Assembly (NCBI GenBank): GCA_030704615.1
Contig: CM060731.1
Location: 1,240,001 to 1,304,000, forward strand
Reading direction: 5' to 3'
DNA: 64,000 nt
From: Takakia lepidozioides
Lineage: Eukaryota; Plantae; Bryophyta
Part shown: in pieces, positions 9,061 to 18,716 of the stretch
How positions within the stretch are numbered: the first letter of the stretch is position 1
How the letters are laid out: each line of letters opens with the position of its first letter
Notes under the pieces: generated by a model
The model's database searches: none
What the model saw: only the letters and a program-made list of their open reading frames with translations
Told to the model about the DNA's origin: nothing
Position numbers and translations under genes: made by a program

Positions 9061-9519
9061 TTTCCCTGAGAGCTGGCCTACATGGGTTATGAGTTTCTTC
9101 AGATTTAGAGTTTACTCTCCAAAGATGCACTTAGAGAGGACATTCTTTGGGCTTTCGGCACCTTCTTTTATTTGACCTTATTGAGGTTTCTCCCTTGTAT
9201 ATTCTAGTGTCAAGTTTTTTGCAACTGGGAGCATGTAGATTCATGTTTGGTGCTCAACTCCTGTTGTTTTCCACTCTTGTCATTGGCATTGTTTGGTCCG
9301 TGACTGGATCAATGACCTCCCTAGTTATCATTCCTGACGTGACGTGGCGCTGACACGTCGGCCGTCACGTCACGTCACATCGAATCCGGACGTTTATCCA
9401 CGTAATTTTTTTTACATTTGACTTTTACGATTTACTTCTATCATTTGTAATGACATGACAGCCACGGTGTAAAACAGACATGGCCGATTATTAATATTTA
9501 TTAATTCTTTAAAAAAAAT

Positions 9520-10010
9520 GAGTCCGCCTATATTGGCGGTCGCATATAATTTATTATTTTTAATAAAAGCGACCGCCCATATTGGCGGTCGTTTGTAATT
9601 TAATATTTTGTTAAATTAAACTGGCGGTCGCCGGTAATTTATTTATTTTTAAATGAAGCGACCGACCATATTGGCGGTCGCCCGTAATTTGTTAAAAAAA
9701 AAAAAGAAACGACCGCCGAAATTGGCGGTCGCCCGTAATTTATTTATTTATAAATGAAGCGACCGCCGATATTGGCGGTCGTCGGTAATTTATTTATTTA
9801 TAAATGAAGCGACCGCCCAAATTGGCGGTCGCCCGTAATTTATTTATTTATAAATGAAGCGACCGCCCATATTTGCGGCCGCCCGTAATTTATTTATTTT
9901 TAAATGAAGCGACCGCCCATATTGGCGGTCGCCCGCAATTTATTTATTTTTAAATGAAGCGACCGCCCATCGCTTGTATTTTATTACATTTTAAAATAAG
10001 CGGTCGCGTA
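9520..10010. repeat. Left array: ~10 units of GCGACCGCC-catatt-GGCGGTCGC plus AT-rich linker, 50-bp period
   Basis: Units start at about 9569, 9658, 9710, 9759, 9809, 9859, 9909 and 9959, plus partial copies. Confidence 0.95.
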
Positions 10011-10303
10011 TTTTTTTTTTTCTTAAAAATCCAGGGACCCGCCGTGTGACGTTTTGTTTTTTATTTTTAATCATGAAGCGGCGCCTCGGTCAGCCACGTG
10101 GCGAGGTGCCACGGGTCAGGAAAAATGAAACAAATGGGATGGGGGGAGGTGGTTTTGAACCCTTGACCTCTCCCAAGTGGGTGCGCGTGGCGAGGTGCGA
10201 CTGGCTAGTCGCGCCGTGCTGACACATGGTGAGGCGTCACTAGCCTGTCGCGCCTTTTCAAGCATAATGTCTTTTTTTTGGGGGGGGGGGGGGTGGGTGG
10301 ATG

Positions 10304-10315
10304 CCTATATAAACC
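10304..10315 (+). promoter_or_regulatory. TATA box candidate (cctatataaacc) for the kinase gene
   Basis: Canonical plant TATA context, preceded by a G-run and followed by a pyrimidine-rich stretch, ~310 bp upstream of ATG 10625. Confidence 0.45.
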
Positions 10316-10624
10316 ATTCCCCCCTCCTTTTCTGATCACTTTTGCCCCTCTTGTGGTGTGATTCCTTGGCATCCTGTAGTCCTTTCGGACTTCGTTGCTT
10401 GGCACTGCCAACGGGAGGTGCAAAGGTGATTATTTGGGGGGGAGGTTTTGTCAGTTTTCTATTGGTCAGTCCCACACACTTGTACAATCATTGTATCACC
10501 ATTTTGTCGTTTCCGGATCTCCGGCGGCCTGTTTTTTTGCAGAAAACTACGAAGACACCATCCACACGCGTTCATTGCCATTTTTCTGAGGTTTTGGACC
10601 CTGTAGTGGGCAAAGGTTTATACA

Positions 10625-14588: not shown

Positions 14589-16928
14589 CTAGTCGTCACT
14601 GTCCGAGGATGTGGAATTTGATGTTGTGGCCTGATTTGCACTGCCAATTGCCAGAGATTGCGACCGTGATCTCGTGGTCAATGAGGGGCCCAATGACATG
14701 TGATCAATTCTGGCCTGCATCCGCCTACTTTGCGGCAAAAGTTGACTTTCTTCTTCACTCTCACGATGTGGCGGAGGTGGATCGAGAACAAGTGCTCGGG
14801 CTGCATGCAAATCTGCAACGAGGCCGTCCACATCCGGCAATACAGCCCCCGAAACACGATGATAACGGTCTGTCCATAATCGCCTCCATTTCTCTACAAC
14901 TGCCTTGATGGTACTTTTGAAACTTTCCAAGTGTCTTTCGCGGGCCCTGTCCCTAATCATTGTGTCGTTTCGACGATAAGCCACCCTGTACGCATCATTC
15001 ATTCGGCGTTGACATATTATAGCATCTTCCAGTTCGGACAACAACAAATGTCTCCCAATCGGTTGTCGGTCATACAATTCGTTCTCCTCCGGCACCCATG
15101 GAACCTGTGGGAGCCGGATAAACCTGGACCTTCTTTGACTCCAATGCCCTCCCAGATTGCGGCAAAACTGCTCTCTCTCCCACCAATCTCGAATACTTCC
15201 CGCACGTATGGTTATCTCTCAATCAGTTTTGATCCAGAAATACTGGGGATCTTTGATGTATGCCGGGTTTCCGGCATGTATGCCATGCATCTCTCTGTCT
15301 GCATCCCATACCAAGTTCTTGCCCCAATGCACACAATTCAGAAATATGTATGGTAGCCCATCCAATAGGAGGTTGTGTCGATTGTATTCAAAACTTATGA
15401 GCATCTGATCCTCCAAGCCCACCAGCTCATAGAAACGGCGATGGATTGGTGTACGGCATTCTTGGCAAACGCTCGTCCGCAAGGCTTGCGGGATAAGACA
15501 TGTGAGATGGAACATATGTCCACATGATCCAAGCACATGACATCCCTCTGGGCCGTATGGATTCCTACACATCGAACAAATTGTGCCATCTGATATCCAT
15601 GACGACAAAACGCCTCGTGGTATCTCTTCCCTCTGGGCCGGTTTGATGTGGCTGGTCATCCTTCTTGTGGTGTCCTACTCTTCCTCTATTTCCAATTCCC
15701 AGTTTATGCTTCTGCTCGACCCGGAAATTCTGTGCTCACATCGATCGAATATAGAATCCACATCTGCCCAATTGGTATACCCGGCGAACACGCTTGATGC
15801 GATGCGGAGATTGTTATACCTTTGCATGTTGGCATAAATGCTATCCACGCTACGGTTCGACATGCGTGCGACACGTTGCAAGCCTAACAGTGCCCGCTCT
15901 ACCCGTGCTTTTCTGGAGGCCAAATGGGTCGCCCATTATACCCAATTCTCCCAATCGCCATTCAATAGGACCCATGCCTGAATCTCCAGCGTTTTGGACA
16001 AGCGCCATGCAGTTGCCATGACAATGTCCCGCTCCTTTGTAACGCGGTCGACATCTAATATCGGGTTCATCTCCGATTGAATGACGACCCTCGAGCATTC
16101 CCCGGTTTCCAGTACTGGTTCTTTTCCTTTCCTCCTTCTCTCATCCGCAATTCGTTGTTCCTCAACCATGGTTTCATCGGCCACAGGATCAAGGACGTCC
16201 GTAACTTCCTGAATGATGAGGTCAATACTGTGATCGGCCATCGCAAACTCCGCGTCCATGTCCACGACGTTTGTTCGATCATTATTGTGGATAACAGTGT
16301 CTTCATTGTTTGGAGGCATGTCTTGTAATGTAGCTACCAACTCGGCTATGCGCAGTGTTTGCCAGTCTAGTCGGTCCTGGAGGGTCCTAATTCGCTGGTC
16401 TCTTTCCGCCAGTTGTTCCTCTAACGTTGCAGCCGGTTGTATCCCGAATGTGTATGGGATGTACTCCAAATTGTATAGCAACCTTGCGTTCTTCTTACTA
16501 GCAGTTTGTCAATTCACTGGACGCAAGAGTATGACCTCCACGTACAATATGACTGCCAAGGTGTACGGGATTTGACCATTTAAGAGAGGTTGACCCCACA
16601 ATGTGCAATGCACCTCATTCGCCCTATGCTGGAAATGATCGTTCGTGCAAGACATGGACTCTGCGTAATTGTTTCAGGTTTGCACGTCATGCCTATCCAA
16701 AGGCCGCAATCGATTGATGTGGTACCATTTCACGAATTTTTTGCATCTCGCCATCGGCCACCGGAACTCTTCCGGAACATCCTCCCAGCCCTCTTCTGCT
16801 AGTATGCTAGGGTCACCAAATACTTCCCAATTCAAGTCTTACCTTGACCCTTTGATTTTCTTAGGGGGCGGTCCATGTTCATTGGGGTCATCTCTTCCAT
16901 GACGGTCATCGTCCTTGCCCTCTGCCAT
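14589..16928 (-). pseudogene. Intronless 780-codon ORF with NLS, coiled-coil-like region and RING-H2 finger (putative E3 ligase), broken only by in-frame stops
   Basis: ATG 16928 (MAEGKDDDRHGRDDPNEHGPPPKKIKGSR*DLNW...). ORF-track pieces 16481-15936, 15923-15675, 15659-15219 and 15095-14589 are all in this frame. RING-H2 C-x2-C-x14-C-x-H-x2-H-x2-C-x10-C-x2-C at ~15578-15456. Confidence 0.85.
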
Positions 16929-16974
16929 TCTACAACAATCGGAGCAACACTAAACGAGGTTTTCTAAAAAGACG

Positions 16975-18635
16975 TAACTTGGCGGTCGCTCGATTTTCCG
17001 GAAAATAAAAAAATAAGCGACCGCCAGAACTGGCGGTCGCTCCATTTTCCGGATAAATAAATAAACTGCGACCGCCAGAACTGACGATCGCTCCATTTTC
17101 CGGAAAAAAAAAAAAAAAAACGACCACCACAACAGGCGGTCGCTCCATTTTCCGGAAATAAAAAAAATAAGTGACCGCCAACATAGGCGGTCCCTTCATT
17201 TTCAAAACATTTAGAATAAATAAGCGACCGCCAACATAGGCCGTCGCTTCATTTTTAAAAAAATTAAAAAAATAAACGACCGCCAACATAGGCGGTCGCT
17301 TTATTTAAAAAAAATAAGCGACCGCCAGCATAGGCGGTCACTTCATTTTCAAAACATTTAAAAATATATAAGCGACTGCCAACATAGGCGGTCGCTTCAT
17401 TTTCAAAAAATTAAAAAAAAAAAACGACCGCCAACATAACCGGTCGCTCCATTAAAAATAAATTAAAATAAATAAGCGACCGCCAACATAGGCGGTCGCT
17501 TCATTTTAAAAAAATCAAAAAAAATAAAAGACCGCCAACATAGGCGGTCGCTTCATTTTAAAAAAATTAAAAAAAATAAGCGACCGCCAGCATAGGCGGT
17601 CGCTTCATTTTCAAAACATTTAAAATAAATAAGCGACGCCAACATAGGCGGTCGCTTCATTAAAAATAATAATAAAAATAAATAAGTGACCGCCAGCATA
17701 GGCGGTCGCTTCATTTTCAAAACATTTAAAATAAATAAGCGACCGCCAACATAGGCGGTCGTTTCATTTTCAAAAATTTTAAGAAAAATAAGCGACCTCC
17801 AACATAGGCGGTTGCTTCATTAAGAAAATAATTAAAATAAATAAGTGACCGCCAACATAGGCGATCGCTTCATTTTCTAAAACTTTAAAAAAAATAAGCG
17901 ACCGCCAACATAGGCGGTCGCTTCATTAAAAAAAAATTAAAAAAAATAAAAGACCGCCAGCATAGGCGGTCGCTTCATTAAAAATAAAATAAAATAATGA
18001 TCGCCAGCATAGGCGGTCGCTTCATTTTCAAAACATTTAAAATAAATTAGCGACTGCCAACATAGGCGGTCGCTTCATTTTCAAAAACTTTAAAAAAAAA
18101 AAAGCGACCGTCAACATAGGCGGTCGCTTCATTTCCAAAATAATTAAAATAAAAGCGGTCGCCCCATTTCCAAATAAAATAAAATAAAAGCAACCGCCAG
18201 TAATGGCGGTCGCTGCATCTTAAAAAATAACCATCACAGCGACCGCCAGAAATGGCGGTCGCTGCATTTTGTAAAAACAAAAACTGCCAGTAATGGAAGT
18301 GAGGGGAGAATGACTGCCCCACCTCCCCCCACCTCATTCCTCGCTCAATGCGCAGGGCAGACCTCGTAGAAGCGACCGTCACCATGGCGGTCGCTCCATT
18401 TAAAAACAAAAAAAAACGACCGCCACAAATGGCGGTCGCTCCATTTCGTCAAAAAAAAAAAAAAAAACGACCGCCAGTAATGGCGGTCGCTGCATTTATA
18501 AAAACAAAAAAAAACTTTAAGCGAAGTGAGGGGAGAATGTCTCGGGCTTATATGCCCCCCTCCCCCTGCCTCACTCCTCGCTCCATGCGCAGGTCACACT
18601 TAGTAAAACGACTGCCACCTTGGCGGTCGCTCCAT
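16975..18635. repeat. Right array: roughly 25-30 units of GCGACCGCC-aacata-GGCGGTCGC plus A-rich linker, ~50-53-bp period, inverted relative to the left array
   Basis: ggcggtcgcttcattt here is the reverse complement of aaatgaagcgaccgcc in the left array. Two copies of a gaagtgaggggagaatg...atgcgcagg insert lie at ~18296 and ~18523. Confidence 0.95.
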
Positions 18636-18716
18636 TTAAATAAAAATGAATGCACAGTTGGAAGAATGGCACAATCGTTCTCCATTTCACAAGCAAATCA
18701 CCGAACACAAACATGA

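Follow-up and report, generated by a model that had tools for sequence, protein, structure and literature searches.

Positions 9321-18716 of the window (the whole 64-kb stretch of Takakia lepidozioides DNA analysed here) are occupied by a decayed, approximately 9.4-kb copy of a highly repeated element. Two palindrome arrays, in inverted orientation, enclose a kinase gene and a RING-H2 gene, with four long hairpins between the genes. The features of the element and of its right flank are as follows.

9321..9378, unstranded: left terminus, TIR-like TAGTTATCAT (9322-9331), then a 12-bp-stem hairpin (9335-9378)
9520..9970, + strand: left palindrome array (units to 9933), 8 units, 50-bp period
10625..12073, + strand: kinase gene, intronless, divergent protein kinase; three stops, two frameshifts
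12157..12690, unstranded: hairpin 1, ~220 base pairs
12763..12941, unstranded: hairpin 2, similar to hairpin 4 in its 3′ flank (74% over 57 nt)
13126..13241, unstranded: hairpin 3, both arms similar to the RING N-terminal motif
13310..13659, unstranded: hairpin 4
13739..14140, unstranded: tandem repeat of a 120-bp unit (2.8 copies), distinct from the element in which it is embedded
14589..16928, − strand: RING-family gene, intronless, one 779-codon frame, six in-frame stops
15578-15456, − strand: RING-H2 with conserved flanks and full C3H2C3 pattern, residues 451-491 of P0002
16708..16747, − strand: site matched by hairpin 3 within the RING coding sequence (21-mer site 16713-16733)
16862-16485, − strand: N-terminal domain of the RING gene, followed by a coiled/low-complexity middle
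16981..18632, − strand: right palindrome array (units from 17017), 28 units, 52-53-bp period, inverted relative to the left array
18713..18721, − strand: right terminus, TAGTATCAT, a 9/10 match to the left end with one gap
18717..18797, + strand: Ty3/gypsy pol scrap of ~80 bp, abutting the right end and matching the window's gypsy copies

The repetition of the element is apparent from contig depth. Summed depth was 8,320-61,785 across the element versus 60.3 on the left flank (run X1), and all parts of the element are highly repeated. In a further run (X5), eight contigs were listed over the element, seven of them with an even depth of 15-26, and left-flank bins were at 0-1.3. The embedded 120-bp tandem repeat is far more abundant, with a bin depth of 1.29 million versus 8,000-62,000 for the rest. 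These depths, set against ~60 on the left flank, support the original reading of a selfish element and show it to be multicopy. A paralogous block has a 1.13-kb spacer where the same spacer here measures 10.87 kb, which indicates that the element was inserted relative to that block. The block is too diverged for an empty site to be read from it at base level.

Six-frame read-through and ORF scans of the whole element returned the kinase and RING families only, and no transposase, HUH, RT or recombinase was found. The predicted absence of a mobility gene was thus upheld, as was the decayed state of the copy, which is evident from the stops and frameshifts listed above. One spliced host transcript was recovered from the window (run X7). 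The same run has low-depth contigs with ~82-85% similarity to hairpin 1 and the RING gene, a signal too weak for a claim of expression.

The kinase and RING gene families

The predicted kinase gene was recognized by a Pkinase match (E 1.8e-7) slightly below the Pfam cut-off. Both of the NLS-like basic motifs ascribed to the two genes, RRKRKR and PPPKKIK, are present in the sequence. Intact kinase relatives are ~490-540 aa in length, with a helical N-terminal region, and belong to a large, deep family (192 matches) with intact, full-length ORFs in many deep clades. Catalytic residues are kept in these relatives (K in 28/28, E in 27/30, D in 36/37, N in 37/37 and DWG-D in 37/37), and their predicted structure adopts the kinase fold (Z 18.8, rmsd 3.2 over 224 residues). 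Retention of K, E, D, N and D, together with the modelled fold, is what would be expected of an active kinase; the gene in the window is broken, and a quick tree places it on a long, unsure branch. The prokaryote genomes searched yielded one marginal, unrelated match.

The only eukaryotic members with a name are dispersed, multicopy genes of Ceratodon purpureus. The kinase cluster that Ceratodon represents has 126 members, and the 15 listed lie on chromosomes 1, 2, 3, 4, 12, U and V and on one small scaffold. Many of the 'hypothetical protein kinases' in the Ceratodon annotation are therefore likely to be transposon cargo.

The RING-H2 gene was also borne out, with a complete C3H2C3 pattern within its 779-codon frame. 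This is the ligand pattern of a RING-H2 E3, and a ligase role is predicted from it. A word-based search with RING residues 300-720 returned nothing; a full HMMER search then returned 166 clusters. Among 55 proteins carrying the RING-loop motif, many of them fragments, only 30 have a complete C3H2C3 pattern, and ~20 long proteins have the N-terminal domain with no RING. That domain is predicted to fold confidently (pLDDT 92). It has no Pfam family, no usable Atlas match and no Foldseek match in the PDB or viral models (best VIA Z 3.0), and its alignment was too variable for a contig scan. The missing fold match does not prove that the fold is new. Both gene families are old and conserved, with catalytic and zinc-binding residues intact in relatives.

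Palindrome arrays and hairpins

The arrays comprise 36 units of a ~24-bp palindrome, GCGACCGCC-N5-7-GGCGGTCGC, which is absent elsewhere in the 64-kb window. A TATA box at 10306 and the kinase gene follow downstream of the left array, and the right array lies upstream of the RING gene. Lying within ~200 bp and ~90 bp of the element ends, the arrays are also subterminal repeats, a feature that is not specific to hAT elements. GC-rich arrays with differing units precede genes in the window's element, in related loci L002 and L003, and in an AT-rich family. The symmetric layout originally described stands to the extent that inverted arrays, at once subterminal and promoter-proximal, flank the genes; it does not extend to the relatives, among which gene order varies.

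The central hairpin cluster was confirmed as four stems within two strongly folding regions, 12140-12960 (z -25.8) and 13050-13700 (z -8.7), neither score being equalled in 20 shuffles. No Rfam family reached its gathering score. Overlooked in the original prediction was the match of hairpin 3 to the RING gene of the same element, in its conserved N-terminal motif. A − strand 21-mer of this hairpin (13214-13194) is complementary to the RING mRNA, and the RING site is the best non-self match of hairpin 3 in the 64-kb window (E 2e-4). Its target score of 2.5 was reached in 0 of 1000 shuffles, and in 0 of 300 when the whole hairpin region was considered. For hairpins 1, 2 and 4, neither the element nor the rest of the window offered a target. 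In L002, a 1.66-kb hairpin matched its own kinase marginally (14/300 shuffles) and its own N-domain gene not at all (69/300), and no long internal hairpin was seen in the AT-rich family.

Termini, flanks and related loci

The left boundary can be placed at ~9319-9323, because a single-copy contig ends at 9348. Read on the − strand, this end consists of a hairpin, 14 nt and CTAG, as in a Helitron 3′ end, followed by G rather than T; its hairpin is the third strongest among 1567 CTRR sites in the window. An alternative right end is a 5′ TC at 18716, preceded by A. The element therefore reads TAG..CTA or CTAG..GA; CA..TG termini and 2-5-bp TSDs were not seen, and decay from CAG is possible. The TIR-like match between the ends is only suggestive, since 2% of random 20-mer pairs score equally (p ~0.02), and the right end partly overlaps the gypsy scrap. 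The flank formed by that scrap is not continuous with the left flank. An alignment of copies had been proposed to define the ends and the target-site duplications; no duplication of 6-10 bp was found at the ends of this copy, a result that concerns this copy only because its right flank looks rearranged.

A RING-family gene was found near the kinase in 9 of 22 related loci. When near-identical loci were merged and three weak matches in ORF-dense DNA (L020-L022, E 5e-6 to 2e-5) were dropped, the pair was present in 7 of 12 distinct loci, and it is linked in three lineages. Co-occurrence elsewhere, for which a test had been proposed originally, was thus observed, but not in a constant order. In L014 and L015-17, the RING gene was absent from the 10-kb flanks.

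A search for longer copies with a transposase, helicase or viral core genes had also been suggested. In one distant family, a decayed hAT transposase (DUF659, E 7e-31) adjoins the RING gene at L010, with parts of the transposase recurring in L007 and L008; no viral core gene was found near the related loci. At two distinct flanks, the end of the hAT-linked family consists of YARGGTTRTCAAA and a hairpin; the kinase of this family is far from that of the window. A profile of this terminus that excluded the window failed to recover the window's left end, so the likeness between these ends is by eye only. No hAT sequence is present in the 64-kb window. For at least one lineage, the relatives suggest a carrier of the cut-and-paste hAT type.

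Interpretation and comparison with known systems

As the pair adjoins a decayed hAT transposase in a distant family, a non-autonomous hAT-type element is the best reading of the locus, and for the window's own family the case for hAT mobilization is evenly poised. The transposase for such an element would be of hAT type, encoded elsewhere and acting in trans. Its N-terminal domain would bind the family-specific arrays that precede the genes, and would thereby recruit both enzymes, the RING ligase and the kinase, to silencing proteins or chromatin, in the manner of VANC on VANDAL repeats; this step has a little under an even chance. The two proteins would then blunt host silencing. Hairpin 3, somewhat more probably than not, would be diced and its product would cleave the RING mRNA of its own or of sister families, thus limiting the dose of a costly protein. 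The complete proposal, i.e. a transposase-less, hAT-mobilized element whose proteins counter host silencing and whose hairpin 3 feeds back on the RING mRNA, is offered tentatively, as something possible rather than probable. By analogy, then, we infer a VANC-like, anti-silencing role with small-RNA feedback.

The same cargo might instead be carried on the − strand by a non-autonomous Helitron (HLE1) running from the 5′-TC at 18716 to the hairpin and CTAG at 9321. The A-preceded TC, the highly ranked hairpin plus CTAG at the depth-defined end and the lack of a TSD are consistent with this, the 5′ TC and 3′ hairpin plus CTRR being HLE1 features (PMC11417382, in part), and fungal accessory genes are described as moving between superfamilies (PMC12730594, in part). 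The G that follows CTAG, however, does not fit insertion at A^T, and the two flanks do not form one target site. Moreover, a related family with a similar hairpin ends in CCTTG, not CTRR, in L008 and L012, and no Rep or PIF1 domain was found among 146 ORFs of ≥95 aa (13 of 19 plant-like loci), so a Helitron appears fairly unlikely. Another cut-and-paste carrier, i.e. Lanisha or a different CMC lineage with the module already in a deposited element, is less probable still. Lanisha (GenBank MT647524) is plentiful in Ceratodon, above all on V, where the kinase family also has multiple copies, but so is hAT (10.1% of U, 7.4% of V). Most elements of CMC type end in CA..TG and have 2-5-bp TSDs (PMC12730594, in part), unlike what is seen here, and the word 'kinase' is absent from the main text of the Ceratodon paper describing Lanisha.

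With regard to function, the element could be a toxin-antidote or drive system, in which spores or sperm that have lost the element are damaged by the kinase or the RING protein, with the hairpin RNA, or the RING ligase's action on the kinase, as antidote. A hairpin that matches one of the element's genes, intact enzymes retained in deep lineages, several Ceratodon copies on U and V, and the precedent of a hairpin-based drive in maize (PMC11390486, in part) would all be in keeping with this. Self-targeting is clear in one lineage only, however, and U and V are large and repeat-rich in any case (PMC8245031, in part). Addiction would also gain little where very many dispersed copies leave a cell rarely without the element, and we regard this possibility as unlikely. 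Origin as a fragment of an endogenous large DNA virus, although suggested by the intronless genes, is very improbable. In a language-model comparison, Nucleocytoviricota RING proteins are among the neighbours of the RING region (score 0.91), but only ~130 of 256 features are shared, as for a generic RING; viral contigs yielded no relative of the kinase and no match to the palindrome, and the N-terminal domain has no viral fold match. The genes themselves may still have an ancient viral source. Neutral capture of processed host genes by a Pack-type element would fit the pseudogenes of this copy, and the hairpin could then have arisen by chance, as an inverted copy of some of the RING gene. It is largely refuted, and scarcely credible, given full-length intact ORFs across many deep clades, the linkage of the pair in three lineages and the lack of an ordinary single-copy parent among the matches. 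Nor are the kinase and RING genes captures of ordinary, spliced host genes.

A broader proposal is of an ancient moss module, consisting of a divergent kinase, a RING ligase whose leading domain has a new fold, promoter arrays specific to each family and self-targeting hairpins, that swaps DNA-transposon carriers and acts as an enzymatic counter-silencing or toxin-antidote circuit under the control of its own small RNAs. Taken as a whole this is doubtful. If it were true, the module, old and widespread in mosses, would combine signalling enzymes with an unmatched fold and a small-RNA brake, and would be a new kind of system. The known counter-defence systems of plant transposons are few (VANC, miR820) and all from flowering plants. 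The intact relatives make the module testable in model mosses.

A description of such an element was not found in the literature searched, which covers Ceratodon Lanisha apart from its gene content, and the accessible portions of PMC11871058, PMC9946827 and bioRxiv 2020.07.03.163634 hold nothing about such cargo. The hAT (DUF659-type) elements are resembled in the gene pair beside a hAT transposase in relatives L010, L007 and L008, and, in the window, in subterminal arrays and short ends that are TIR-like; Mar, a hAT MITE, has an 11-bp TIR, CAG(G/A)GGTAGGC, and 8-bp TSDs (PMC3517528, in part). The window copy differs in having no transposase or TSD, and kinase, RING and long-hairpin cargo was not found described for hAT in the literature searched. 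Lanisha is likewise a cut-and-paste element of a moss, plentiful where the kinase family has multiple copies (PMC8245031, in part), but belongs to an EnSpm-like transposase lineage (PMC12730594, in part), this comparison being by description, not gene content. Fungal DNA transposons carry TET/JBP and alpha-kinase cargo (the kinase on IS3EU), exchanged among superfamilies including hAT; these are other enzymes in another kingdom, and neither hairpins nor RING appear in the accessible portion of that source (PMC12730594).

In Teosinte Pollen Drive, hairpin small RNAs also operate within a selfish system, but the hairpin is a poison directed at a host gene from a single locus (PMC11390486, in part), as opposed to an element's own gene in a high-copy element. 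The small-RNA hairpin miR820, inside rice CACTA elements, targets the host gene OsDRM2 (PMC3459959, in part), whereas the only target identified in the present element is its own RING gene. The VANDAL/VANC elements of Arabidopsis, which are non-TIR MULEs, pair an element-encoded accessory protein with family-specific, non-coding tandem arrays (PMC5735166 and PMC13317346, in part), as the window's element pairs its accessory proteins with arrays of its own family. In a VANC-type system, the protein binds tandem motifs specific to its family and brings about hypomethylation. The window's element differs from VANDAL/VANC in an N-terminal domain with no Pfam family, another carrier, an additional kinase, an E3-type RING, the hairpins, and a function that is predicted.

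Structure, repetition and decay of the element

The original prediction placed a kinase gene, hairpins and a RING gene between palindrome arrays, the second of them inverted, and this layout is present at 9321-18716. A pattern scan of the window identified 36 palindrome units, 8 in the left array and 28 in the right, mutually inverted, with none outside the element. The folding of all four hairpins was far above that of shuffled controls.

10625-12073, + strand: kinase gene, three stops and two frameshifts
12157-12690: hairpin 1
12763-12941: hairpin 2
13126-13241: hairpin 3
13310-13659: hairpin 4
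16928-14589, - strand: RING gene, single frame, six stops, C3H2C3 pattern intact

It is apparent from the stops and frameshifts that this copy is decayed, as had been proposed. The proposed lack of a transposase, HUH, RT or recombinase ORF is likewise borne out, in that Pfam scans covering the element returned kinase and RING families only.

In DNA run X1 the left flank, up to 9348, was represented by one contig at a depth of 60.3. Summed depths of the element bins ranged from 8,320 to 61,785, except for the bin containing a 120-bp repeat (1.29 million); summed depth is not a copy number, but it indicates that the element is strongly repeated. In run X5, from a separate study, depth was even (15-26) over the kinase gene, hairpins and RING gene in seven of the eight contigs listed, which fits parts that move as one. 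In an old inverted duplication, two conserved anchors are separated by 1.13 kb in one copy and by 10.87 kb at the element, and the element is therefore an insertion. The differences in X1 were chiefly A>G (95 places) and T>C (105), with G>A at 27 places and C>T at 55; this excess suggests deamination as the route of decay.

The inverted segmental duplication relates 8901-9008 and 19877-22173 to 48049-47941 and 44718-46809. It contains a gene pair (92% in exons), which we take from its motifs to be glyoxal-oxidase-like, as well as what is left of the last exon of an adjacent, presumably SelO-like, gene. The 120-bp repeat in the element (13739-14140), with a depth about 20-40x that of neighbouring bins, is likely a satellite or a very abundant short element. 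A short repeat of very high copy lies at about 6000-6140 (bin depth 100,579 in X1), where ARAGORN found no tRNA. Tandem Ty3/gypsy copies occupy 28691-41040, with three 737-bp LTR-like repeats at 31034, 36999 and 40317 that are 91-96% identical; these copies have many frameshifts, and assembly error is possible.

The cargo families and their co-occurrence

The kinase profile matched 192 proteins, and Ceratodon purpureus was the only named eukaryotic source among the 120 matches listed. One kinase cluster represented by C. purpureus comprises 126 members; of these, the 15 listed are spread over five autosomes, U, V and one small scaffold. Catalytic residues are kept across the relatives, and the modelled structure adopts a kinase fold, at 11-18% identity to kinases of solved structure. 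Basic N-terminal clusters were present in 13 of the 15 kinase and RING sequences checked. Two family kinases on short contigs, P0275 (MBE3102861.1) and P0405 (HEX8609468.1), are filed as bacterial MAG proteins; these, like a 'Bacilli' and a 'Pedobacter' label on short contigs, are likely to reflect plant contamination.

For the RING protein, 166 related clusters were recovered. Full-length relatives (about 730-1150 aa) combine an N-terminal domain (N-domain) of some 125 aa with a variable middle and a RING-H2 region that has conserved flanks. Of the 64 sequences in which the N-domain was found, 11 also have the RING region and about 20 others are long but lack it. Structure prediction for the non-RING region, as originally proposed, gave a confident fold for the N-domain (pLDDT 92), which matches nothing in Pfam, Atlas, PDB or viral models, a lack of a match only and not a demonstration of a new fold.

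A contig scan yielded 22 related loci; three weak ones were left out and the remaining 19 merged into 12 distinct loci. A RING-family gene lies near the kinase in seven; three of the other five are too short to judge, and two have long flanks without a RING gene. Because a single AT-rich family accounts for six of these seven, the independent lineages number three: the window, locus L002 and the AT-rich family. The anticipated pairing of the two genes was thus recovered, but their orientation varies, being convergent in the window, tandem in L002, L006, L008 and L018, and divergent in L007, L010 and L012.

L002, with open frames, comprises an array, an N-domain gene, a 1.66-kb hairpin, an array and the kinase. 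This hairpin (L002:2169-3827) is a near-continuous fold-back of about 660 pairs between the two genes. The search for a transposase in relatives was answered by L010, where an array is followed by a decayed hAT transposase (DUF659, E 7e-31), the adjoining RING gene, a second array, a small ORF, a third array, the kinase, a fourth array, a hairpin and the end. This small ORF, which lies between the RING gene and the kinase gene (L010:8023-8364; also in L007, L008 and L011-L013), has no Pfam match and is absent from the window.

Ends and carrier

The AT-rich family ends, at two different flanks, in TAGGG or CAAGG followed by TTRTCAAA. Both forms could derive from CAGGG through deamination, which is heavy in this family (CHG o/e 0.22); the hAT MITE Mar starts with CAG(G/A)GG (PMC3517528, in extract). 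The ends of the window element, TAGTTATCAT and TAGTATCAT, look similar by eye to that end, but their pairing is only suggestive (p about 0.02). They have no target-site duplication, and a profile built from the relatives' terminus failed to find that of the window element.

A hAT carrier for the family stands at even chances. The element is not classed within the hAT superfamily, since it has no target-site duplication and no partner transposase is shown for Takakia lepidozioides. A carrier that is neither hAT nor Helitron is rather improbable, and a Helitron more so: the end bases can be read as TC ... hairpin-CTAG (features as in the available sections of PMC11417382), but the base after CTAG is G. 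Origin as an endogenous-virus fragment, as once suggested, is unlikely, given that viral contigs yielded neither a relative of the kinase nor a match to the palindrome and that the N-domain has no match among viral models, even though generic look-alikes of the RING region are viral. The element is real and unusual, of a cargo-bearing DNA transposon kind, and it was most likely mobilised in trans.

Hairpin matches and possible function

In a search of the whole window, the best non-self match of the hairpin region links hairpin 3 to positions 16708-16747 of the RING gene (E 2e-4). Each arm of hairpin 3 translates to the conserved N-domain motif, one resembling the element's own copy and the other those of other clades. 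For a - strand 21-mer of hairpin 3 the predicted target scores 2.5 on a plant miRNA target scale, a value that none of 1000 codon shuffles reached, nor any of 300 when every hairpin served as query. Hairpins 1, 2 and 4 had no match above chance in the element or window, and the L002 hairpin matched its own kinase only marginally (14/300).

The arrays precede the genes, and their units vary from family to family, much as the target repeats of VANC are family-specific (PMC5735166, in part). By this analogy, the N-domain may recognise the arrays, and the two proteins, which carry basic N-terminal clusters, would act in the nucleus and disable local silencing through ubiquitination and phosphorylation. 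Hairpin 3 would limit how much RING product is made or hold sister families in check. The main functional rival, a toxin-antidote module, appears improbable.

No description of a moss kinase-RING-hairpin cargo was found in the literature searched, which excludes Repbase and most subscription papers; the accessible text of a gene-capture review (PMC13317346) mentions neither kinase, hAT nor moss. Lanisha elements are named in an excerpt of the Ceratodon paper (PMC8245031), and the novelty of the element could be lower if their genes match its cargo. Its analogues among known systems are VANDAL/VANC and, from the portions of the sources consulted, miR820 on CACTA (PMC3459959), fungal TET/JBP and alpha-kinase cargo (PMC12730594) and Teosinte Pollen Drive (PMC11390486).
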